DNA of 59,529 nucleotides, filler included. It is 6 parts of 6 records of this genome, joined end to end, with 100 filler letters (N's around TTAATTAATTAA, not from the genome) between each part and the next. Parts side by side here need not be neighbours in the genome. Positions count along the whole stretch, not along the records: positions 39,514 to 46,518 come from SRR31156797_53687; 5 more parts are not named here. One strand, given 5' to 3'. This document shows positions 1,769 to 48,816 of the stretch, one piece after another (position 1 is the first letter of the stretch; every line of letters begins with the position of its first letter). The translations under genes and the position numbers were made by a program. The notes below the pieces were generated by a model that worked only from the letters and a program-made list of their open reading frames with translations, was not told the origin of the DNA and did no database searches.

Positions 1769-3873
1769 TGTTGTATTTCTTACCTCATAATCATGATGAG
1801 CTGGCAATAACCGATTTTTTTATATTGCAAGCTCCCTTTGCTCGGGTTGTTGAAGCGACTCTGCCTATCCCAGCTTCTGTTACCTTTGCGACCTTTCACA
1901 AAAATGAGCAACTGGCTTGTATTGGAGAACTCCTTTCACTTACCTCTAAGCAGATTGCGGACCTGAAAGATGTAACTGTTGCCACAAGAATGCGCGATTT
2001 TCTTATCGTACCACTAAACCTTGGGGCATCTGAAAACATAAGCGTGGTAATCAGTGTTGCTGATCCCGCATTGCTCGCAAAAATGTCTGATCAGTGGCTT
2101 TGTGAACTCCAGGTCTTACTGTTACAGCAGCTTACCTGTGAGCGAAAAATCTATATTGATCCTGAAACGGGGATGTATAATAAACGAGGATTGGTGCTGT
2201 TAAAAGATTTACAGCACGATGCCGCATCTTCTTTTGTGTTTATTCATACGGGAATGTCGAGTCGAGCAGTCTCTATAAACATGATTCGCTATCAACAGGT
2301 GACAGATTTATTGCAGGCAGTAGTACCCGGATTTCTTTTTTCCTGCGGACTTCAAGTGATTGGCGTCTTGTTTTTTGATATTTCTGCAGACAACGCTGCC
2401 AAGGCATGCAGACTGCTGCAAAAGCATCTTAAGCGCGAAGGTGTACGCAAGGTACAAGTGGGAATTGCATCAGGGTGTATTCAGGAGGATATAGTTGAAA
2501 CGGCATGGAATGCCCTGCTTATTGCTGAAAAACGTGGTCCCTTCGGAGTGTGTGATGCCAGGTCGCTTGTTGATCATCCTTTTTCCCTGCCTTCTGAACG
2601 GTTGCTAAAAAAAATGCAGAGGCGATGGCGGGGGTGTTCCCGGTTTGCAGTGGCAGTTTTTGCTTGGGAGATCCCTGCTAAAGATACGATGATGGAACAG
2701 GAGGCGATGGAGATCCTGGGAGGTAAGGGGGAATGTATTGGGAGTGAAAAGGGGCGTACATATGTATTCCTACCGTATAGTAACTCGTTTTCTTTAGCGG
2801 CAGTTGTAGAACATCTTAATAGTAAAAGGGATGCCGCACATGCGTTGCCCGTAAAAGAGATAGGGGCAGCAGAATGGCCGACACTGGCTTATTCAAAAAC
2901 ACAAACCCTTGTCAATTGTGCCAAGGCACTTATGCATGGCTCTTTTTTAGAGCCGGGGTCGGCGGTGGCCTTTAATCACTTAACATTGAATATAAGTGGT
3001 GATTATTATTTTGAAGATGGTGATTACTACGCCGCAGGAAAGGAATATCGTTATGGTCTGCAGCTGCTTCCCGGCAATATTAATCTGCTCAACAGTTTAG
3101 GCGTCACCATGGTTGAGTTTAATCAGTATGCCCGTGCTGCGGACTGTTTTAAGGCTGTTCTCCAGGAACATGAGGATGATCATATGGCCCTTGTAAATTT
3201 AGGGCTGGCCCAACAGGCTGTAGGGGCAAAGAAAGAGGCTATGGCTACTCTGGAAAAAGCAAGGCAGGTGATACCAGAGGGCGAAGCGGTAGGGGGAGAA
3301 CTTTTTCTACCGCTGGGCAGGTTATACACAGAGTTTGGTTTTTCCCAGAAGGCCATTGATGTATTGCTGCAGTGGTCTTCCAAGCCTGGCAGTGAAAAGG
3401 AATTTCTTCTTCATCGCCTGCTTGGCAAAAATTATTTTACAAAAGGCGACTATACAAAAGCTATTACTGCTTGCCAGCGAGCACTGCAGATATATCCGCA
3501 GGACAGTGTCAGTCTTAGTTTACTCGGTGCATTATATGTTGTTGAAAAACAGGGTGATGAGATAGGTCTGCGACTCTGTAAGCAGGCGGTAGAGCTTGAT
3601 CCTGCCAACCCTGATAATTTGTATCGGTTAGCTTTTGTTTATCTGCAGACAGCAAAATGGGGAGAGTCCAGAGATGCTGCAAACCTTTGCCTGCGACGTC
3701 TGCACAATCATGTGGATTGCGGTATCCTTGTGGCAAGACTGGACTGGAAGCAAGGGCGGAGCATCCAAGCCGAACGTCGGCTTAAACGACTGCAGAAAAA
3801 AAGTTCTATTACTGTCCGACAGGAGGAAGAAATCACACGGCATTTGAAAGAAATTACAGCCTGCACTCTGTAG
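1768..3873 (+). CDS. Degenerate GGDEF-like domain(s) plus C-terminal TPR-repeat protein
   Basis: IDPETGMYNKRG resembles the DPLTGLYNRR entry motif of GGDEF domains, but no GG(D/E)EF motif follows. The C-terminal ~300 aa show TPR patterns (LLNSLGVTMV, ALVNLGLAQ, LLGKNYF..GDY..AI). Start overlaps the selA stop (TAATG). Confidence 0.7.
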   Translation: MLYFLPHNHDELAITDFFILQAPFARVVEATLPIPASVTFATFHKNEQLACIGELLSLTSKQIADLKDVTVATRMRDFLIVPLNLGASENISVVISVADPALLAKMSDQWLCELQVLLLQQLTCERKIYIDPETGMYNKRGLVLLKDLQHDAASSFVFIHTGMSSRAVSINMIRYQQVTDLLQAVVPGFLFSCGLQVIGVLFFDISADNAAKACRLLQKHLKREGVRKVQVGIASGCIQEDIVETAWNALLIAEKRGPFGVCDARSLVDHPFSLPSERLLKKMQRRWRGCSRFAVAVFAWEIPAKDTMMEQEAMEILGGKGECIGSEKGRTYVFLPYSNSFSLAAVVEHLNSKRDAAHALPVKEIGAAEWPTLAYSKTQTLVNCAKALMHGSFLEPGSAVAFNHLTLNISGDYYFEDGDYYAAGKEYRYGLQLLPGNINLLNSLGVTMVEFNQYARAADCFKAVLQEHEDDHMALVNLGLAQQAVGAKKEAMATLEKARQVIPEGEAVGGELFLPLGRLYTEFGFSQKAIDVLLQWSSKPGSEKEFLLHRLLGKNYFTKGDYTKAITACQRALQIYPQDSVSLSLLGALYVVEKQGDEIGLRLCKQAVELDPANPDNLYRLAFVYLQTAKWGESRDAANLCLRRLHNHVDCGILVARLDWKQGRSIQAERRLKRLQKKSSITVRQEEEITRHLKEITACTL

Positions 3874-3884
3874 GGAGGCGATCA

Positions 3885-4559
3885 ATGAAAAAACATCAGG
3901 TAAAAAGGGAGAATCAATACTGCCTCGATAATATGGAGCGGGGTGACTCTTGGAGAATGTTTCGTATTCTGTCAGAGTTTGTGGAGGGGTTTGATACTCT
4001 TTCCGGGTTGCGTCAACCTGCAGTTACTATCTATGGGTCAGCGCGCACAATTGAAGAGGATCCTTATTACCAAAAGGCCAGAGAACTGGCTGCAAAATTA
4101 GCTGGTCTCGGTTATGGCGTCATAACGGGAGGAGGACCCGGGATTATGGAGGCTGCCAACCGGGGTGCCATGGATGTGGATGGGCTCTCCGTAGGGTTGA
4201 ATATCGATTTACCCCATGAGCAAGATTGTAATCCATACGTGAATTTACCGCTGGATTTCCGCTATTTTTTTGTTCGTAAAGTTATGTTTATGAAATACTC
4301 GATGGCTTTTATTTGTATGCCTGGTGGGTTTGGTTCTCTTGATGAACTGTTTGAGTCATTGACGTTGATACAGACACGTAAAATAAAACCGTTTCCGATA
4401 ATTCTCTTTGGTTCCGAATTTTGGGGTGGACTCGTAGACTGGCTGCAGGACCAGGCATTGGGTGGCGGGAAAATCGAAAATGATGATTTATTATTGTTTG
4501 AAGTTATGGATAACGTAGATGATGTGGTACGATATGTCCGTAACGCATTGGTTTCTTAG
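3885..4559 (+). CDS. LOG family (TIGR00730) nucleotide phosphoribohydrolase, Rossmann fold
   Basis: VTIYGSAR, ITGGGPGIMEAANRGA, FRYFFVRKVMF, PGGFGSLDE. Confidence 0.92.
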   Translation: MKKHQVKRENQYCLDNMERGDSWRMFRILSEFVEGFDTLSGLRQPAVTIYGSARTIEEDPYYQKARELAAKLAGLGYGVITGGGPGIMEAANRGAMDVDGLSVGLNIDLPHEQDCNPYVNLPLDFRYFFVRKVMFMKYSMAFICMPGGFGSLDELFESLTLIQTRKIKPFPIILFGSEFWGGLVDWLQDQALGGGKIENDDLLLFEVMDNVDDVVRYVRNALVS

Positions 4560-39513: not shown

Positions 39514-39514
39514 G

Positions 39515-39901
39515 GAAGCCGCCAGGGAAGTTGAAAACGGGCTCATAGGATTTATTCGAACCCAGCAGCAGGAAAAGTTCCTTGCTGACGCTGCCCGGGC
39601 AGCGGATAGGGCGACCCAAATAGCATTGCTGCAATACAAGGAGGGGCTCACCGATTATACCCGGGTCCTGAACACCCAACAACTCCTGGTGGCCCAACAG
39701 GACACCCTGGCAACCAGCCGCGGGAATATCGTTCGCTATTTAATCGCCGTTTACAAGTCTCTGGGCGGCGGTTGGCAGTCCCGTGTGGGCAAGGACATAA
39801 TACCTGCGAAAACCCTGGAGACCATGCGCAAAAGAACGGATTGGGGGAATCTGCTGGATACCGATTCATTAAAGAGAAACCATGGAAGGAGGAAACAATG
39901 A
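39515..39901 (+). CDS. C-terminal end of a NodT/TolC-type outer-membrane efflux lipoprotein (5' truncated)
   Basis: Frame open from the contig edge: EAAREVENGL...QYKEGLTDYTRVLNTQ...YKSLGGGW. Confidence 0.85.
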   Translation, partial: EAAREVENGLIGFIRTQQQEKFLADAARAADRATQIALLQYKEGLTDYTRVLNTQQLLVAQQDTLATSRGNIVRYLIAVYKSLGGGWQSRVGKDIIPAKTLETMRKRTDWGNLLDTDSLKRNHGRRKQ

Positions 39902-40392
39902 TGAAAGGAATGATTCAAATGGGAATCCTGCTGATTGCGGCAGTTTTTATTGCAGGCACAGCCTTGGCGCAGGATTTATTTATTTACCCCACCAAGGGCC
40001 AGGACAAGGAACAGATGGAAAAGGATAAGTATGAGTGTTACCGGTGGGCCAAAGATCAGACCGGCTTTGACCCCATGCAGCAGCCCCAGACCACGGCCTC
40101 GCCACCTCGGCAGGAAGCGAGCCAGGGAGGGCTGTTGCGTGGCGCGGGAAGAGGCGCAGCGGTGGGGGCCGTTGGGGGTGCTATCGGTGGTGATGCCGGC
40201 AAGGGGGCTGCCATCGGCGCGGCTTCCGGGGCCTTGATCGGCGGCATGCGGAGACGCAGCCAGGCCAAGAACCAGCAACAGGCAGAGGAGCAATGGGCCC
40301 AGGAACAGGCGGCTATTTACCGGCAAAAACGGGAAACCTATAACCGAGCCTTCGGAGCATGTCTGGAAGGAAGAGGGTATACGGTGAAATGA
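39898..40392 (+). CDS. Exported glycine-zipper (YMGG-like) protein
   Basis: ATG after AGGAGG; signal peptide; YPTKGQ..EQ..KDKYEC, GAAVGAVGGAIGG, CLEGRGYTVK. Confidence 0.8.
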   Translation: MMKGMIQMGILLIAAVFIAGTALAQDLFIYPTKGQDKEQMEKDKYECYRWAKDQTGFDPMQQPQTTASPPRQEASQGGLLRGAGRGAAVGAVGGAIGGDAGKGAAIGAASGALIGGMRRRSQAKNQQQAEEQWAQEQAAIYRQKRETYNRAFGACLEGRGYTVK

Positions 40393-40537
40393 TGGATGAT
40401 ATGGGGTTATACGATGAGGCGAGCCGAACAATATTTCCGGGAGATGCATTGGGATACAGCATTGACTATCAAAACCCTTGCCCGGCCCACCATGGCTGAG
40501 GGATACGAAGGATCCCGGGAACAGACCTCGTGAGAGG

Positions 40538-41410
40538 TTAAGTTGTTGCACGGACAAAATTAAAGAGCGTCGATACTTTTCGATGCTTGTTATCCCCATG
40601 GAAATAGCTGTTTCGGACCTCATCAGTTGAACTTTTGAAAATGTGTTTAAAACCATGGTGCTTTAAAAAGCCGTCAATATCATCAGGTTCAATACCGAAT
40701 TTATACGGTTCCCCGTTCTTTTGTGCAAATTTGTTCATCTCCTTCCCGAGCCGGTCGTTTGTGGCGCCGGAAATGACTTCCGGCGGAAAATAGTCGAAAG
40801 CGACGCTACTCCCTTTTGCTGAGTGATCAACGATAAAACCGAGCGTTTTTTCCACCGATTCCTTCTCCAGAAAGTAGATCACACCCTCCCATATGAAAAG
40901 GGTTTTCTCAGAAGGTGAATACCCGGCCCTTGTTAGTGACGCATTTAAATCGTCAGTTTCAAAATCATGGGGAACATAAGTAATATTTTCGGGAATGCTT
41001 TTTAGATGGATTTGTATTTTGGTCAATTTTTCTTTTTGGGTACCGGGATAATCCACTTCAAAAATGTTTGCGTTTCGTAAGATATCATGAAAACCATAAG
41101 CGCTCATATCATACCCGGCGCCGAGGATAACAAGCTGTGTATGGTCGGCGGGGAAACACTCTTTTAGACATTCGTTCATAAATCGGACACGGGCGATGAG
41201 TGAACCAAAAAAACCTGGATATTTGAAATTCCCGATTATCTTCACGAGCCATGAATGAACGGGGCTGGTTATCATTTTTTTCCATTTTTTCCCCAGGAAT
41301 AACTTGGCGTAGGGATCATCGATAACACGTTCGCTTTTCGGCCGCATTGTTTCCAACGCCCTGTAGGCAGCGACGCCTTCCGCGGTTTCGCTGGATCTAT
41401 TCTCTTTCAT
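40538..41410 (-). CDS. SAM-dependent methyltransferase, LCM/TIGR00027 family
   Basis: TAEGVAAYRALE, DDPYAKLF, QLVILGAGYD, FEVD, FIWEGVIYFL. Confidence 0.9.
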   Translation of the reverse strand: MKENRSSETAEGVAAYRALETMRPKSERVIDDPYAKLFLGKKWKKMITSPVHSWLVKIIGNFKYPGFFGSLIARVRFMNECLKECFPADHTQLVILGAGYDMSAYGFHDILRNANIFEVDYPGTQKEKLTKIQIHLKSIPENITYVPHDFETDDLNASLTRAGYSPSEKTLFIWEGVIYFLEKESVEKTLGFIVDHSAKGSSVAFDYFPPEVISGATNDRLGKEMNKFAQKNGEPYKFGIEPDDIDGFLKHHGFKHIFKSSTDEVRNSYFHGDNKHRKVSTLFNFVRATT

Positions 41411-41550
41411 GATGTCATCTCTCCTTTACCGAAATTAAGGGGCGGGGCTGCTATTTTCCTGAAACCATTCATTCCGACGGTTTTGTTGTTTCGAAACACC
41501 CTATTACCTTTTTGGAACCGCCATGATAGAAAAAAACCGATGAAATTTCT

Positions 41551-41586
41551 GTTCCCAGCGGGATTATTTTCGTTCCAGGAAGGATT
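41551..41586 (-). promoter_or_regulatory. Candidate AraC-type tandem direct-repeat operator (21-bp period) abutting the methyltransferase promoter
   Basis: GTTCCCAGCGGGATT (41551-41565) and GTTCCAGGAAGGATT (41572-41586); minus-strand -10 TATCAT at 41523-41528. Confidence 0.5.
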
Positions 41587-41729
41587 TTAAGCCCTTAACG
41601 GACAATGTCAGCTCGTAAAACCCTTGTGTGGGGGCCAACGGAATGGTAGCCTTTCCGATCTGCTCCAAGAAATGCATTTCCGGCGGGTGAATTTACCGTT
41701 GCAGACACATTTTAGATAAGGCGTCCCTT

Positions 41730-42767
41730 ATGACCGGCAAGCGCTCAAGGATCTGTGTCAGTTCCCAAGACATCATCGATATCATCCGGGAATCGAAGGC
41801 CGACCCTCCTCCCAAGAGGGATTCCATGGGGCGGGGTCCTTCTCCATTGGGAGGGATCTTTTGGGGGGATGTGGAAATATTGGCGCCTAGGCCGGGTCTG
41901 AAAATTTACACTTCGGATTTTCGACTTGAGGATGAACTCGAAGTTTCAACTCCCAAGCTCGATCAGACCATGTTTTGTTTCATATTGACCATGGCGGGTT
42001 CCTGGCGTCTGCTGTTCAAGGACTGTCGTGGCCGAAGCGAGGATCTGTCCATTGCCGCGGGTGTAAACGCCGCGGGGATCAGCCCGCCGAAAGCATATAA
42101 GACGAGGCTTGAGGGGGGAAAGCGGCATAGATACGTGAGAGTCGATATTTCAACGGCACTCTTACCGCACTTGATGGCGGAAACCGAGACAAAGGCGAAC
42201 AACGGTATGAATGACGACCCACATTTCCATGATTCACCGGCATTGGATAATCGCGGCATCCTTACGCCCTCATTGGAATATCTGGCCCATGAGGTGATCC
42301 ATTGCCCCATGGAAGCAGGGGCGAGGCGACTTTTCCTGGAAGGCAAGGCGTTGGAGATTGTCGCTCATGAGTTGCACTATTTAAAAGCCGCCGACGATTT
42401 ACGGGGGGGGCGCCCCGAACCGGTGGAGATGGAGCGGTTTCGCCGGGCCAGGCGTATTCTCGATATGGAATTCGCCGATCCGCCGGGTTTATTTGAACTC
42501 GCCCACAGGGTGGGTATAAATGACTTTAAACTGAAACGGGGATTTAAGAAGTACTTCGGGACAACGGTATTCGGCCACGTCCGGAATCTTCGGATGGCGA
42601 AAGCCCGGACATTGCTGGGGTGCGGGGAATTGAGCGTTACCGATACAGCGGGGTTGGTCGGTTATCGCTCCCTGGGGCATTTTGCCGCCGCTTTTAAAAG
42701 ACGATTCGGCATACTGCCGGGAAGATATCGTAATGAGCGGTCAAAGCTGAAAGGTCATGGCGCATAG
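41730..42767 (+). CDS. AraC-family regulator (PchR/YbtA-like)
   Basis: RLFLEGKALE, PPGLFELAHRVGINDFKLKRGFKKYFGTTVFG, VGYRSLGHFAAAFKRRFG. Confidence 0.92.
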   Translation: MTGKRSRICVSSQDIIDIIRESKADPPPKRDSMGRGPSPLGGIFWGDVEILAPRPGLKIYTSDFRLEDELEVSTPKLDQTMFCFILTMAGSWRLLFKDCRGRSEDLSIAAGVNAAGISPPKAYKTRLEGGKRHRYVRVDISTALLPHLMAETETKANNGMNDDPHFHDSPALDNRGILTPSLEYLAHEVIHCPMEAGARRLFLEGKALEIVAHELHYLKAADDLRGGRPEPVEMERFRRARRILDMEFADPPGLFELAHRVGINDFKLKRGFKKYFGTTVFGHVRNLRMAKARTLLGCGELSVTDTAGLVGYRSLGHFAAAFKRRFGILPGRYRNERSKLKGHGA

Positions 42768-42853
42768 CCCCTGATACCTTTCATCTTCAAGCTTCTTCGT
42801 ATACCACCTCCACCACCTTGATGTATCCTGAAAGTTCCTTCACTATTCCTTGA

Positions 42854-42916
42854 ATACTTTGAAATCCTATTGAGAAGATCCCTCTTTTTTAAAGGTTTGG
42901 ATAGATAATCGGTGCA
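42854..42916 (-). pseudogene. Scrap of a receiver (REC) domain C-terminus
   Basis: Translates to CTDYLSKPLKKRDLLNRISKY, with an in-frame stop shortly upstream and no start. Confidence 0.55.
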
Positions 42917-42991
42917 GGTTACTCCGAGCCGGAACAGTATCCATCAGCACTGTCATGGGGAGACTTTTGACCGTCGGAAGTTTGATCCGTT

Positions 42992-44377
42992 TCATTTTCC
43001 GTCCACTTTACGGGCTCCGGTTCCAAACAATTCCAGAGCCGCCGTTGCCATGGCACCAACCCCCGTTTCAATACTCGCCTTTACCACGGGGGCGAACTTG
43101 CTTGAATGTAGAGAGGGCGGTTCTTTTCCGTCAAGAGACCTTTTCATCAACTGATTTTGCCCGACGGCACCCAAGCGGAACATACAAATGGGGATATTCT
43201 CCGCTGTCCTTCCGTAGCGCGCAAAGTCTTCCCCGATCATTTCCGGATCCCTGGATACCACATTCTCCTGACCCAAGTTGCGCTCAAATGTCCTCACCAG
43301 CCGTTTTGTCAGCATCGGATCATTGTAAAGGGCCGGGGTGAAATCTTCTCTGACTTTAAGGGTGGGCGCAGGCGCTCCCCTAGCGGCCGCAATGCCGTTT
43401 GCAATCCGCTTTATGGATGTCAGGAGCCGATTTCGGGTTTCCTCGGAAAAAGACCGGACCGTCAATTGGAGATACGCCTCATCCGGGATAATGTTGTGCT
43501 GAGTTCCGCTGTGAATCGACCCGACCGTAATGACCGCCGGATCCGTCGGATTTATTTCACGGCTCACGATGGTCTGAAGTGCCAGGATTAATTGGGCCGC
43601 CATCACCACGGGATCTTGGGTCTTGTGCGGAGCAGCACCGTGCCCGCCCGCGCCATGAAGGGTGATATCCAGCGAATCCACATTGGCCATTGCATACCCG
43701 CTGCGAAAACCCACCTTTCCAGCGGGAAGGTCCGCCGCCACGTGCAACGCCAGACCGTAATCAGGAATCGGAAACCGGATAAAAAGACCGTCTGCCAGCA
43801 TGGCCTTGGCCCCGGCACCCTTTTCTTCAGCAGGTTGCCCGATCATCATGAGGGTCCCCGACCACCTGTCCTTCATTTTCATGAGCACATAAGCCGTACC
43901 CATAAACACCGTCATATGCATGTCATGGCCGCAGGCGTGCATGACACCCACATTTTGATTCCGTTCATTCTTCGTAACGATTCGACTGGCATAGGGCAGG
44001 CCGGTTTCTTCCGTTACGGGAAGTGCATCCATGTCCGTTCGAATCATGACTGTGGGGCCTTTGCCGTTTTTGAAAATACCCACAACCCCATGCCCGCCCA
44101 CTTGCGTCGTCACGTGAAAGCCGATCTTTTTTAATTCTTCGGCCAGTCGGGCGGATGTCTCCTTTTCATGAAATGACAACTCGGGATGGGAATGGAAATG
44201 GTGGTACAGTTTTTCCAAGAAAGGATAGGCCTGATCCGTGAGAAGTCGAACGGAAGGTTGGGATTCTTGAGAAGTATAAAGAGGTTGCCCCGCAAAAGCG
44301 GGAAGCCGCAAAAAAGACAGCATCAGCACGACCTGGACATACCATCCCAACCTTAATGCACCCGTCATTTTCAGCAT
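42992..44377 (-). CDS. M20D amidohydrolase (Acy1/hippuricase-like), probably exported
   Basis: HSHPELSFHE, RTDMDALP, MHACGHDMH, QPAEE, GGHGAAPH, GEDF, LHSSKF; start after GGAGGAGG. Confidence 0.93.
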   Translation of the reverse strand: MLKMTGALRLGWYVQVVLMLSFLRLPAFAGQPLYTSQESQPSVRLLTDQAYPFLEKLYHHFHSHPELSFHEKETSARLAEELKKIGFHVTTQVGGHGVVGIFKNGKGPTVMIRTDMDALPVTEETGLPYASRIVTKNERNQNVGVMHACGHDMHMTVFMGTAYVLMKMKDRWSGTLMMIGQPAEEKGAGAKAMLADGLFIRFPIPDYGLALHVAADLPAGKVGFRSGYAMANVDSLDITLHGAGGHGAAPHKTQDPVVMAAQLILALQTIVSREINPTDPAVITVGSIHSGTQHNIIPDEAYLQLTVRSFSEETRNRLLTSIKRIANGIAAARGAPAPTLKVREDFTPALYNDPMLTKRLVRTFERNLGQENVVSRDPEMIGEDFARYGRTAENIPICMFRLGAVGQNQLMKRSLDGKEPPSLHSSKFAPVVKASIETGVGAMATAALELFGTGARKVDGK

Positions 44378-44582
44378 GAGCTCTTTCCTCCTCCAAAAAG
44401 GGGACAATCCGTCAAAGAATTTCAAAAGAACCGCCCTCTCCTCCTGTCTTTTTGTTACCTTTCGAACTCTCCATCACCCTAGTGTCGTGTCATGCATCTA
44501 ATACGAAGAAAGTCAAGAACGACGCCATAAATAGTAATTTCTTGCTGTTTATTAACACATTATCCTGTTTGTCGGCAATGTT

Positions 44583-44723
44583 TTACCGGTTATCCTGAGC
44601 GCTCTCCTTCATCACGTCCCCCAGCTGTCCGGTCAGGGTCAGATGGCCCTTGCCGTTCATAAGGGTGGCCTCAATGAACAGGATATCGCCTCCCACCGGT
44701 GTCACGGCCAGACCCGTGGCAAT
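44583..44723 (-). pseudogene. lon: Isolated 46-codon fragment of the Lon protease proteolytic domain
   Basis: [43 protein letters not shown] then DNR-stop; immediately preceded by an in-frame TGA. Confidence 0.88.
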
Positions 44724-44910
44724 TCAATTGAGTCCTTATGCCATGGGACTTTTTCCAAGAGGAAGAACTCAAAGGTCTGCGCATGGAAATCCGGCCTGAC
44801 TTTGAATTCGGTGTCTCCTTCGATGATCACCCGGGTCCAGGAGGTGTTGGGGGCGACCCCATCCGCCAAATCGTGAATGAATGCTAAACCCTGTCAAGAA
44901 TATTTTTTGA

Positions 44911-44940
44911 TTGACAGGGAACTTTTTACAAATGTATCAT
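44911..44940 (+). promoter_or_regulatory. sigma70 promoter for the Met-leader/DUF39 transcript
   Basis: TTGACA (44911-44916), 18 nt, TATCAT (44935-44940). Confidence 0.7.
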
Positions 44941-44972
44941 CGCGGCAACTTCTAAAAGGAAAGTACGCGGAC

Positions 44973-45047
44973 ATGAATTTACGTAACACCCCCCCAAACC
45001 CGATGATGATGTCCATGATGCCCGCCAGAGGTGCGCCCATGGGTTGA
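44973..45047 (+). CDS. Met-rich attenuator leader peptide MNLRNTPPNPMMMSMMPARGAPMG
   Basis: 24 codons, 7 of them Met (ATG ATG ATG TCC ATG ATG cluster). AAGGA upstream. Lies between a promoter and a terminator, upstream of a homocysteine-synthesis gene. Confidence 0.8.
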   Translation: MNLRNTPPNPMMMSMMPARGAPMG

Positions 45048-45070
45048 TTGACATGGATCCTTAATCTTTC

Positions 45071-45107
45071 AACGCCGTGGGCCTTAAAAACCCACGGCGT
45101 TTTTTTT
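45071..45107 (+). terminator. Attenuator (intrinsic terminator) hairpin
   Basis: AACGCCGTGGG-ccttaaaaa-CCCACGGCGTT, running into a T8 tract (45100-45107). Confidence 0.9.
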
Positions 45108-45414
45108 GCCATAAGAACGGTTTTAAACTGCGAAATACCTTTAATTTCATGAAAATTCTCAGCAGCTTCCGGAAAACGAATATCCCTCCGTACCGGCTGG
45201 ATCCTTGCCTATGGATAATGGCCGGGCTCCTTCGGGGGCCGACCCACGTGCGACTACCTTAAACTAATCAAATATACAACAACCAAAAAAGGCGGCGATT
45301 ATTCCCCTCCGGGATTTTAGTGGTTTGGCGGGTTGAAATGAATCAGGTCTGAACCCACCTTGCCGGATACCCGGGGATTGTGGGGAAGCGCCGCCCATAA
45401 TGGAGGCAAGATTT

Positions 45415-46518
45415 ATGGCCAGGACCATTCAGGACATCAACCGTAGAATTCGATCCGGAAAGGTGGTGGTATTTACCGCCGAGGAGATCATCCATGTGGT
45501 TCGTAAAAAAGGGGTAAAACAGACCGCCAGGGAGGTGGATGTGGTCACCACGGGAACCTTCAGCCCCATGTGCTCTTCGGGGGCCTTTTTGAATATCAAA
45601 CAACCAAGGGTAAAGATGAAGCTGGGCGGCGGGTTTGCCACACTGAACGGCGTCCCGGCCTATGCGGGACTGGCGGCCGCCGACGTTTATCTGGGCGCCA
45701 CGGCCCTGGCGGAGGAAGACCCGCGAAACAGTAATGGGGGCCCTGGAAAATTCAGATACGGCGGCGCCCATGTCATTGAAGATCTGGTGGCGGGCAAAAA
45801 GGTTTCATTCAAGGCCATGGGCTACGGAACGGATTGCTATCCCAAAAAGCACCTTGAAAAGGACATTGGGTTAGGGGATATGAATGACGCCTACCTGTTC
45901 AATCCGCGCAACTGCTACCAGAATTACAATGTGGCGGTGAACGTTTCCCACAAGCCGATCTTCACCTACATGGGCAAACTGAAACCCCATATTGGCAACG
46001 CCAACTACTGCAGCGCCGGTCAGCTCTCGCCCCTTTTTAACGACCCCCATTATCGCACCATCGGTATCGGGACGCGGGTGTTTCTGGGCGGCGGTCACGG
46101 GTATGTGGCCTGGCCCGGCACCCAGCATAATCCCCTGGCGCCGAGGCTTGAAAACGGCACACCGAGGAGTCCGGCCGGAACCGTGGCCCTTATGGGCGAT
46201 TTGCGCCGGATGAGCAACCAATGGCTGCGGGCCGTCTCTTTTACCGGCTACGGGGTCACCCTCAGTCTTGCCGTGGGTGTTCCCATTCCCATTCTGGACG
46301 AGGAAATGGTGCGGGCCGTATCGGTTACGGACGCGCAGTTGAAAGCGCCCATTGTGGACTACAGCCGCTTCTATCCCCATGGGGAGGGAGAAGCAAAAAT
46401 AGGCGAGGTCAGCTATGCGGCGTTGAGATCCGGCAGCATCCGGATCGGCGGAAAAGATGTCCCCACCGGTTCCTTTTCCAGCTATGCCATGGCCCGCAAG
46501 GTGGCACGGTACCTCAAA
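45415..46518 (+). CDS. Homocysteine biosynthesis protein (DUF39; L-aspartate semialdehyde sulfurtransferase, MA1821/MJ0100 family), 3' truncated
   Basis: MARTIQDINRRI..GKVVVFTAEE, VDVVTTGTFSPMCSSG, YGGAHVIEDL, GTDCYP, NPRNCYQNY, LSPLFNDP.YRTIGIGT; GGAGG RBS at 45402-45406. Confidence 0.9.
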
Positions 46519-46618
46519 NNNNNNNNNNNNNNNNNNNNNNNNNNNNNNNNNNNNNNNNNNNNTTAATTAATTAANNNNNNNNNNNNNNNNNNNNNNNNNN
46601 NNNNNNNNNNNNNNNNNN
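46519..46618. other. Artificial contig linker
   Basis: N44-TTAATTAATTAA-N44. Confidence 0.98.
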
Positions 46619-46913
46619 CCACGCTTTTGAGAGCGCCCTCAAGCCGGCAGCCTTCGATTTCAACGATCTCTAGAATCTCCACCCCCAGTTTTTCTACCTG
46701 AGACTTGATCCTTTCCATTAAATCCATGCCGGCGATTTTATCGTGGGAAGGAAAATTCTCGATTTCGATCGCCCAGTTGGCCAGTCCGCCGCAGGTTTCT
46801 TCTTCCAATACCAAGGTATGAAGTCCGGCCCTGGCCGTATATATGGCTGCGGTCAAGCCGGCGATGCCGCCGCCCAGGATGATGATGTCGTATTTACTTT
46901 TTTTGCTTTCCAC
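46619..46913 (-). CDS. Thioredoxin reductase-like flavoprotein, N-terminal part (truncated)
   Basis: YDIIILGGGIAGLTAAIYTARAGL, IENFPS. Confidence 0.88.
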
Positions 46914-46924
46914 TTTTTCGGTTT

Positions 46925-47230
46925 TTAAATTCCCTTGAATATTTTTGTCAGGCCCTGGGGGTTGGTCAGCCCCTTCTGCCGGGCTGCTTCCCGCCCTCCC
47001 TTAAAAAAAAGAACTTCAGGAAAGCGATCTACGCCGAAAGCGGCGGCGGATTCACGGTTTTCCAGGCCGTTGATCTGAAATATGCGGACGCCCCGGTTTT
47101 TACGGGCGAACTTTTCCAGGACGCCCTTCATGGTTTTGCAGTACGGGCAAGGGTCTTTATAGAAAAGGGCCAGGCAGTCGCCCGCCGCTATTTCATTACT
47201 AAAATTCTCGTCAACTATTTCTTCGATCAT
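46925..47230 (-). CDS. Thioredoxin-fold protein with CPYC active site
   Basis: LFYKDPCPYCKTM, FGVDRFP cis-Pro motif. Confidence 0.88.
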   Translation of the reverse strand: MIEEIVDENFSNEIAAGDCLALFYKDPCPYCKTMKGVLEKFARKNRGVRIFQINGLENRESAAAFGVDRFPEVLFFKGGREAARQKGLTNPQGLTKIFKGI

Positions 47231-47301
47231 GATTTCCTCTTGGGGGCCGGCGGTTGGAAAAGCAGTAATCGCCGCCGGCTCCGAATTTGGTTGCAGCAGA
47301 C

Positions 47302-48816
47302 TTAGCTGGCTTTCAGATCCAGCATGAAGTCCCGGAGTTGTATCCAGAGATCGTTGGCGACCTTGTCTTTCTCGCCGATGATATTATTGAGCTGGAAAGG
47401 ATCTTCCCGGCGGTTGTACAGCTCATCCTGTTCCGGAGTTTCAGCGGCGGCGCCGGGAGTGCATGACCAGATGCCGTCTTCGTCCGTGAGCTTGAGACCT
47501 TCATCGTAGATATCGGGCAGCATTTGCTTGGTCAGCTCGGCGTAAAAGCCGACCATTTTGTCCAGGTCGTCCTTGTATTCGCCGTCATGAAGCCAGTGGA
47601 TGTAGGACCAGTCGTCAGTGATTATGCTCCAGGAGAAATTGTGGTACCCGGCTATGGCAAAATCACGGAGTTTATCCTTTTCGCCGGAGACCAGCGGCAG
47701 CAGGCTTTTTCCTTGCATTTCCTCGGCCAGTTCGTCTTCCACCCCCAAATAATCGAGCACTGTAGGCGCAAAATCCGGGGTTTGAACAAAAGAGGAGTTT
47801 CTTCCCGGTTCGTCGCCCGGGTTGCGTACTATGAGCGGTATATGAACCAGTTCTTCATAGGGCCAGGGGCGGCATTTCCGCATCAGGCCATGGCCGTGTT
47901 CGCCGTTGCCCAGGGGTTCGCCGTGGTCTGACAGAAAAACGATCAGGGTGTTGTCATAAAGCCCCAGCTTTTTCATCCGGTCGAGCAGCACTCCGATCCA
48001 CTTGTCGGTCATGGTGATTTTTTCAGCATAGAGCATGCGAATATGATGCATTTCTTCTTCGGTATAGGCGCCGTCAACCAGGCAGGGAACCGGCAAAATT
48101 AGATTCTTGCCCTGGTAATCAGGATTGTAGGGGCATTTCATGTCCGGATCGTAGACCGAGGGCGGATCCCAGGGTTCATGGGGATCGAAGAAATCCACCC
48201 ACAGAAAGAAAGGCTTGCTCCGGTCCACGCTGTTTTCGAGATAATTGATCACATTACGGCAGGTGCGGGCCGCGTACTGGTTTTCGTCGCTGGTCCAGTA
48301 CTGGCGGTGGGACAGATACTGGGTCAGTTCCTTGCGGGTGACATAGCTGATCGCTGATTCCTGATTGTTATGGGGGTCGATAACGGGTGTGTGCATGGCG
48401 TCCGGATCCAGGTGCAGCACGGGGTCTTGAGAATAAAAATGGTCTCCTTCCTGTCCTCTCAGGTATTGCACAAAGTCGAACCCCCGCGAATAGCCGTATT
48501 TGGGCAGGTGGAGCATTGGACAATCGGCGATCAATGCGGTTTGGGTGTGGTTGCGGTAGAGAATATCAGCCAGGGTTGTGTCTTCATAAGTCAGGGGCAC
48601 CCATCCGGCAAAGGGAAGCGTGTACCGGCCCGTGGCCAGGGCGCGCCGCACCGGGATAGTGGGCAAGCCCTCGGCGTAAGCATTTTCAAAGACCATGGAT
48701 TCCCGGGCGAAACGGTCGATGTTGGGCGTTTTGATCCAGTCGGCGCCGTAACATCCGAGGTAATTGAACTGCCAGCTGTCGGCCATGATCATAACAACAT
48801 TTTTCACTTGCGGCAT
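47302..48816 (-). CDS. Sulfatase-fold (alkaline phosphatase superfamily) hydrolase with Thr at the FGly position
   Basis: Start MPQVKNVVMIMADS after AAGGAG; TPNIDRFA, PTIPVRRALATGR, FDPHEPWDPP, SDHGE, HIPLIV, ELY..EDPFQ. Confidence 0.88.
   Translation of the reverse strand: MPQVKNVVMIMADSWQFNYLGCYGADWIKTPNIDRFARESMVFENAYAEGLPTIPVRRALATGRYTLPFAGWVPLTYEDTTLADILYRNHTQTALIADCPMLHLPKYGYSRGFDFVQYLRGQEGDHFYSQDPVLHLDPDAMHTPVIDPHNNQESAISYVTRKELTQYLSHRQYWTSDENQYAARTCRNVINYLENSVDRSKPFFLWVDFFDPHEPWDPPSVYDPDMKCPYNPDYQGKNLILPVPCLVDGAYTEEEMHHIRMLYAEKITMTDKWIGVLLDRMKKLGLYDNTLIVFLSDHGEPLGNGEHGHGLMRKCRPWPYEELVHIPLIVRNPGDEPGRNSSFVQTPDFAPTVLDYLGVEDELAEEMQGKSLLPLVSGEKDKLRDFAIAGYHNFSWSIITDDWSYIHWLHDGEYKDDLDKMVGFYAELTKQMLPDIYDEGLKLTDEDGIWSCTPGAAAETPEQDELYNRREDPFQLNNIIGEKDKVANDLWIQLRDFMLDLKAS

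Follow-up and report, generated by a model that had tools for sequence, protein, structure and literature searches.

The DNA analyzed here (the window, 59,529 nucleotides in its whole length) is composed of joined records, of which SRR31156797_53687 occupies positions 39,514 to 46,518 and is followed by an N gap from 46519. This record ends within a gene of the DUF39/HcyBio family (Table 1), and the PF01837 match bears out the assignment to DUF39/MA1821 that a preliminary description of the sequence had made for the gene at 45415. The protein carries the conserved PMCSSG cysteine region and is a predicted homocysteine synthase; an assignment as methanogenesis marker 16, the CoM-synthase relative TIGR03287, was rejected at 115 bits against a cut-off of 364. 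In Desulfovibrio vulgaris, mutants in DUF39 and NIL/ferredoxin are rescued by methionine and DUF39 is needed for methionine synthesis (PMC5764234, available part). Of 11 close loci that were scanned, 10 have a NIL/ferredoxin gene 3' of DUF39; in the window this partner is invisible because of the N gap.

Two types of DUF39 gene can be distinguished in the order. DUF39 was detected at E <= 1e-100 in 101 of 121 genomes, nearly all of it of a type with 52-60% identity; this widespread copy is located close behind another gene, presumably an M23 peptidase, and none of the 24 loci viewed showed a leader ahead of it. In a tree of 66 rows, hand-picked among the collected loci, the window protein belongs to a separate clade of 22 rows (support 100/100) that holds all rows with the attenuator described below, and the widespread copy forms its own clade of 16 rows. 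Both copies are present in five of five attenuator genomes tested, where the three widespread copies that were readable carry neither leader element. Judged from these sequences, the regulated gene is the second DUF39 copy, and the DUF39 tree alone would place the window among Desulfobacterales-like bacteria. In one genome (G001:C18:56081-57155; L248, L249) the widespread copy is split into two matches and the attenuated copy is whole.

Table 1. Features of the DUF39 leader region and gene (positions in the window)
Feature	Positions	Strand	Evidence
Candidate sigma-70-type promoter, TTGACA-18-TATCAT	44911..44940	+	11/12 consensus match
uORF1, candidate Met leader peptide, 24 codons	44973..45047	+	ORF reading, conserved frame
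Sensor codons, M-M-M-S-M-M	45003..45020	+	151 in-frame ATG in 38 related leaders
Segment 1, conserved protector strand	45011-45017	+	7-bp 1:2 helix, 94% paired
Shine-Dalgarno-like GAGGTG, 5 nt ahead of the last in-frame AUG of uORF1	45028..45033	+	sequence
Segment 2, antiterminator strand, with the stop codon of uORF1 inside	45035..45047	+	pairs with terminator 5' arm
Intrinsic terminator, made up of segments 3:4 with the U tract	45071..45107	+	covariation, 11-bp stem
uORF2, 37 codons, with the W-I-M motif inside	45149..45262	+	conserved start position and frame
Invariant motif A-TGG-AT(A/C)-ATG (W-I-M)	45211..45220	+	invariant alignment columns
6-bp hairpin, begins 4 nt past the W-I-M AUG	45225..45240	+	covariation
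Long 105-nt hairpin before the ribosome-binding site, window only	45291..45395	+	z -2.9
DUF39/HcyBio homocysteine-synthesis gene, second-paralog clade	45415..46518	+	PF01837, 465 bits; cut by N gap

Upstream of the gene, the preliminary description had recognized a promoter, a 24-codon uORF with five Met in six codons, an 11-bp terminator with a T8 tract and a competing antiterminator pairing, and all four were recovered. The promoter is the only + strand sigma-70-like site found by a promoter scan of 44000-47500, which gave none in the interval between terminator and gene. The uORF reads MNLRNTPPNPMMMSMMPARGAPMG* with its five Met clustered as described. The terminator stem has a predicted stability of -20.3 kcal/mol and a loop of 9 nt, which is why a simple terminator scanner overlooked it, and two T of the T8 tract (45100-45107) are paired within the stem. 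The antiterminator duplex between segments 2 and 3 comprises 13 bp with one bulge and is calculated at -22.6 kcal/mol, compared with -20.3 for the terminator. Short ORFs with at least four internal Met in six codons occur once in the window and three times in total in 100 dinucleotide shuffles of it, one of the three with a T5 nearby; the entire leader folds no better than shuffled sequence (z -1.24). Immediately upstream of the promoter, 44 codons bounded by stops match the C-terminal domain of Lon protease (44592-44723, - strand; PF05362, E 2.6e-17). They represent a gene remnant and suggest that a rearrangement brought the leader-DUF39 unit to this position.

Two samplings were used to trace the leader in relatives. 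The first was protein-based and covered the best 80 of 573 DUF39 relatives from genome contigs. The 15 closest loci (71-79% identity) amount to 14 distinct ones, since L004 and L005, which come from two contigs in a single assembly, do not differ in leader and gene start, reflecting duplication or assembly redundancy. Seven of the 14 have a leader with a Met cluster and the ending RGAPM(G/D)* followed by a terminator, six have no attenuator (one of them, L007, with just 328 nt of upstream sequence) and one, L014, has a diverged copy. The latter leader (L014:3752-3894) reads MTLQARLDHFRIESMVMPLDKSPRA*, contains two internal Met only and keeps the 8-codon distance to the stop; its terminator stem is different and the W-I-M motif described below is absent. 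None of the remaining 65 of the best 80 loci had such a leader; three short ORFs rich in Met turned up among them and are unrelated. The second sampling relied on a 20-nt pattern over segment 2, which excludes both the Met run and the terminator and matched 44 metagenome stretches. An in-frame run of 2-5 Met codons lies just 5' of the pattern in 37 of these, with a terminator in 36 (the remaining one is at a contig end), and 32 continue into the W-I-M motif and the start of DUF39, the other five stretches stopping within 266 nt; DUF39 is therefore downstream in 32 of 32 stretches of sufficient length. No Met run, terminator, W-I-M motif or DUF39 start accompanies the seven other matches. A conserved Met-rich uORF with a terminator next to DUF39, for which the preliminary description had proposed to look, was recovered by both samplings.

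The alignment of 38 distinct leaders (A1) has a mean column identity of 78% and consists of close kin, and the counts drawn from it do not represent independent events because the rows are related. In the ten codons ahead of a conserved Arg, ATG occurs 151 times in frame and never out of frame, and each of the 38 leaders has two to five Met there. A start ATG is found 17-24 codons ahead of the Arg and in frame in 37 of 38 leaders, so that a short leader ORF with kept start, frame and stop is present in the 5' leader, as in classical attenuators. The N-terminal half of the peptide is variable, and the Shine-Dalgarno sequence of uORF1 is weak across the leaders. In 32 of 38 leaders, a hexamer resembling a -35 element is found 108-135 nt ahead of the 3' motif, and a full promoter consensus score of at least 9 is reached in only 14. 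Beyond these relatives, a 15-nt segment-2 pattern gave six matches in 401 genomes of the phylum, five of them chance matches without a leader, and a tandem-Met pattern gave 34 matches in the five attenuator genomes, where the 28 loci viewed combined a Met run with a terminator at DUF39 leaders only; no second Met attenuator is found elsewhere in these five genomes by this query. In or beside the promoter, 11 of the 15 close loci (L001-L005, L008-L011, L013, L015), with or without the attenuator, have a 15-bp near-palindrome centered on ACA-W-TGT that matches at 13-15 of 15 positions, and only 10 of 15 in the window. It is likely to be a repressor site, judged from its sequence.

The two helices on which the switch would depend are conserved to a similar degree and differ in their substitution pattern. 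In the terminator helix 3:4, 98% of the alignment cells are paired, three pairs show two-sided changes and the covariation score was reached by none of 500 shuffles. The 8-bp core of the 2:3 antiterminator is likewise 98% paired without covariation, its 5' side (segment 2) having been fixed by the search pattern in 30 of 38 rows. Of the covariation for which the preliminary description had proposed to test both helices, the 3:4 part is present and the 2:3 part is not. Its proposed protector, 44997-45005 with 45038-45045, turned out to be specific to the window: all 8 pairs form there, compared with 2-6 of 8 in the remaining 37 leaders. The conserved 1:2 helix is instead built on 45011-45017, a strand within the Met run that forms 7 bp, is 94% paired and shows no two-sided change. 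Nascent RNA was then folded up to a transcript end just 3' of the 5' arm of the terminator, with an assumed ribosome footprint of 10 nt downstream. With the first or the last Met codon in the A site, all 38 leaders form 2:3; with the ribosome at the stop, none of the 38 does. Masking the footprint, as the preliminary description had suggested, gives the behavior expected of an attenuator. Without a ribosome, 1:2 is dominant in 21 of 38 leaders and 2:3 is favored in 14, including the window. The antiterminator is mutually exclusive with the terminator, and at equilibrium the terminator prevails in 36 of 38 full-length leaders even when a ribosome is stalled, which means that the switch would have to be kinetic.

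The strongest evidence on the role of the codon run comes from a natural exchange of codons. A covariance model was built from A1 and run on 150 genomes belonging to the order. It returned some 320 matches, and 60 of the 61 best-ranked were viewed, one partial match being left out. Phe/Tyr/Trp runs precede aromatic-pathway genes in 46 of the 60 (28 ADH synthase, 9 DAHP synthase, 7 shikimate kinase-like, 1 aroE and 1 pheA), Trp runs precede trpE or trpC in seven, Met runs occur in six and one match is unclear. The downstream gene classes were assigned by motif with an HMM check on 24 proteins, and the shikimate kinase-like proteins score under the NCBIfam cut-offs. Four of the six Met runs lie directly before DUF39 and two at contig ends, that of G434 overlapping a DUF39 contig by 99 nt and that of G483 without overlap; none is ahead of any other gene. 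Altogether, in 59 of 60 matches the codons agree with the downstream pathway or at least are not at odds with it, and this correspondence argues for the codon run as the sensor. The aromatic and Trp leaders of the order have segment 2, the terminator arms and the place of the stop in common with the Met leader and differ from it in sensor codons and target genes: L255, for instance, reads MMTKTNNQSWQNFYFYYFGRGAPMD and ends as the Met leaders do, with GRGAPMD. The mean identity of the 3' scaffold is 0.62 between Met and aromatic leaders, compared with 0.68 within the Met and 0.67 within the aromatic group, and in 24 of 25 leaders of the two kinds the last sensor codon stands 7-8 codons ahead of the stop (8 in the window). 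Most likely, then, the Met and aromatic leaders share one scaffold through exchange of sensor codons. From abundance, our guess for the direction would be aromatic to Met; a tree of the 3' scaffold is too short for rooting or for the direction of the swap. The large family of Phe/Tyr/Trp and Trp attenuators (L255-L309) includes several with two tandem terminators, and in G432, G473, G503 and G531 aromatic and Trp leaders adjoin back to back.

Taken together, the conserved Met run, frame, spacing and helices and the paralogs that swap codons with the pathway favor the reading of the preliminary description, and it is highly likely that the leader is a classical ribosome-mediated transcription attenuator with AUG as regulatory codon that senses methionine. 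When Met-tRNA(Met) is plentiful, the ribosome would proceed to the stop codon and cover segment 2, and the terminator would end transcription near 45105. When elongator Met-tRNA is short, the ribosome would wait on the Met run and leave segment 2 free to pair with the 5' arm of the terminator before the 3' arm is made, so that read-through would reach the second, inducible DUF39 copy, together with NIL/ferredoxin in relatives. The scheme depends on the initiator tRNA keeping its charge as elongator tRNA-Met runs down, because failed initiation of the leader would give super-attenuation, as described for trp (PMC1183508, available part). The same part of that source describes selective charging of isoacceptors for other amino acids, and by analogy such charging could leave the initiator tRNA charged.

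Three other explanations were weighed. The first is based on initiation: GAGGUG and the last AUG of uORF1 form a possible AUG-X-stop minigene, at which fMet-tRNA initiation would cover segment 2 and favor termination, so that the leader would read initiator tRNA, either in addition to elongator tRNA or in its place. GAGGTG stands 5 nt ahead of this in-frame AUG identically in the window and in seven loci selected by protein search, and a comparable fMet idea was proposed for the fthC uORF (PMC11109978, available part). The purine patch is, however, altered in L253, L254 and L260 and missing in L014, where that AUG is replaced by AGG; the upstream Met run is left unexplained; and the aromatic paralogs share the P-M-X-stop end, where sensing of Met would make no sense. 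We consider this explanation improbable. Still less credit can be given to an independent small RNA or small Met-rich peptide served by a terminator of its own, with DUF39 transcribed from a promoter further down, or to a metabolite-binding riboswitch. Such readings would suit the distance between terminator and gene and the weak upstream promoter consensus in many relatives, but no Rfam family, SAM riboswitches, T-box and amino-acid leaders among them, matches the window at gathering score, a promoter-like site downstream of the terminator is lacking in the window and occurs in only 3 of 38 relatives, at differing positions, the N-terminal half of the peptide is unconserved, and the codons follow the downstream pathway. 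SecM, ApdA and ApdP contain nascent-chain arrest motifs, and the RGAP C-terminus of the leader peptide could be imagined as another, with a metabolite parking the ribosome on segment 2; R, G and A do outlast synonymous changes (AGA 10, CGA 28; CGG, GCA and GGC in L253/L254, L251 and L260), yet most third positions are invariant, as expected from base pairing, and the aromatic paralogs read RLAP, RRLP, RRVP or KRMP and L014 reads DKSP at this place, which makes the idea scarcely credible. As main sensor, both the minigene and RGAP arrest are disfavored by the aromatic paralogs.

To our knowledge, methionine is absent from the textbook list of leader-peptide attenuators, and this absence is to be expected since initiation of the leader itself needs Met and its failure would lead to super-attenuation. 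The classical examples are trpL, hisL, pheL, thrL, leuL and ilvL of E. coli (scheme in the available part of PMC1183508). Like this trp/his/phe class, the DUF39 leader combines, as far as sequence can tell, a leader ORF, a codon run, 3:4 and 2:3 helices and the corresponding geometry; it differs in that the regulatory codon AUG is also the initiation codon, that the target is the anaerobic DUF39 route and that a second uORF follows the terminator. The preliminary description knew of no characterized Met-codon attenuator. None that has been tested was found in the literature covered, outside of which lay subscription papers on attenuator prediction and the supplement of PMC11109978, whose eight uORF candidates, with a Desulfobacteraceae genome among their sources, could hold the motif; an untested candidate is, however, in print, namely metL before metNIQ of Streptomyces lividans, proposed as an attenuator in a single-genome RNA-seq annotation (PMC8079986, available part). 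It is likewise a short leader ORF with Met codons ahead of a methionine gene, and differs, according to that part, in having two internal Met together with Cys codons, no intrinsic terminator and an unrelated sequence. The available parts of PMC2965389, PMC4833913 and bioRxiv 10.1101/803072 contain nothing on Met leaders.

Other systems resemble the leader in part. Mycobacterial polycysteine leader ORFs also respond to a sulfur amino acid via uORF stalling (bioRxiv 10.1101/834739; PMC1262725; available parts), and differ in their Cys codons and in lacking a conserved terminator hairpin; the portion of PMC1262725 at hand reports no conserved RNA structure upstream of methionine operons in Actinobacteria. 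In deltaproteobacteria, the SAM-I S-box, which acts by termination and is found in Geobacter and Desulfuromonas, and SahR control methionine genes in the same phylum (PMC545781; bioRxiv 10.1101/803072; available parts), but sense SAM via RNA or protein. SAM-I (RF00162) was detected in one of the five attenuator genomes, not at DUF39; this riboswitch (L238, G001:C11:134352-134449) scores above the cut-off and has a terminator.

What is new here is very probably a conserved Met-codon form of trp/his/phe-type attenuation, as judged by comparison of leaders. Such a conserved and complete candidate makes it testable whether initiator tRNA stays charged while elongator tRNA-Met empties, and the aromatic paralogs on the common scaffold offer a natural control and illustrate a change of attenuator specificity. 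In uncultured Desulfobacterales-like bacteria, the regulatory signal would also link a second DUF39 paralog to the supply of methionine. In addition, the work on the Met leader exposes a W-I-M leader peptide ahead of DUF39.

This element occupies the gap between terminator and gene. The separation of about 300 nt given in the preliminary description is correct as a distance, and the gap contains a second conserved uORF (uORF2) that had been overlooked. Its W-I-M motif sits 104 nt beyond the terminator. In the frame of the motif, an ATG at least 10 codons upstream without an intervening stop is found in 39 of 46 copies, while the two remaining frames have one in only 4 and 2 of the 46, and the uORF2 ATG is exactly 21 codons ahead of W in 30 of 34 attenuator leaders, including the window. 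In relatives this start mostly has an AAGGA-type site; the window copy has no Shine-Dalgarno sequence. The hairpin after W-I-M is 89.7% paired with three two-sided pairs, and its covariation was reached by none of 500 shuffles. A short form, consisting of a strong Shine-Dalgarno sequence and M-x-W-I-M, occurs in 12 of 151 phylum genomes (a control pattern in none) and lies immediately ahead of DUF39 in 10 of the 12, two of these ten being known beforehand. According to the rows of the DUF39 tree, the W-I-M element is more widespread than the attenuator. In ten aromatic rows, no W-I-M motif was found in this role, with one unrelated match (L266). In relatives, W and the gene are separated by anything between 68 and 415 nt, and the long hairpin of the window, from which a 19-mer occurs only once in the window, was not seen in relatives and is probably an insertion.

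From these patterns, uORF2 is likely to be a real translated regulatory uORF. Synonymous Ile changes are seen in W-I-M together with invariant third positions, and the base ahead of TGG is always A, which counts against a purely peptide role. If uORF2 is real, the foremost, still tentative, possibility is a stall at the Met codon that acts on DUF39 translation; a metabolite-dependent arrest is a good deal more doubtful and a site for an RNA-binding protein somewhat more so again. Translational coupling of uORF2 to DUF39 gave computed signals that are weak at best: pairing of the W-I-M region with the DUF39 ribosome-binding site is no better for cognate than for permuted combinations (3575/10000), and a modeled stall at the W-I-M Met makes opening easier by more than 1 kcal/mol in 17 of 52 cases and worse in 4 of 52, and raises mean unpairing by more than 0.1 in 8 of 43. 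Read-through transcripts would meet this older ribosome-read checkpoint, which most likely would act on DUF39 translation. It is conceivable, and we put it forward with reserve, that the two parts form a two-stage, wholly ribosome-read Met sensor, in which a trp-type attenuator that acquired its Met specificity when codons were exchanged on an aromatic scaffold tells elongator from initiator Met-tRNA and is followed by an older, DUF39-specific W-I-M leader peptide, a new type of translational sensor responding through a Met-tRNA stall or a SAM/homocysteine arrest.

Other identities of the W-I-M motif were tried and rejected. A TPP riboswitch remnant is resembled by eye by the L053 match, and the window has no flanking helix; for a Fur half-site (consensus in the available part of PMC545781), there is no second half and an ATC variant exists; for a promoter -10 element, there is no conserved -35. 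The overlapping AUG would open a further, third ORF (MDN...), which was likewise rejected, being unconserved in length and sequence by eye. In L043, two tandem mini-ORFs led by Shine-Dalgarno sequences (3461-3528 and 3916-3960) precede DUF39 and contain QMIM and MVWIM.
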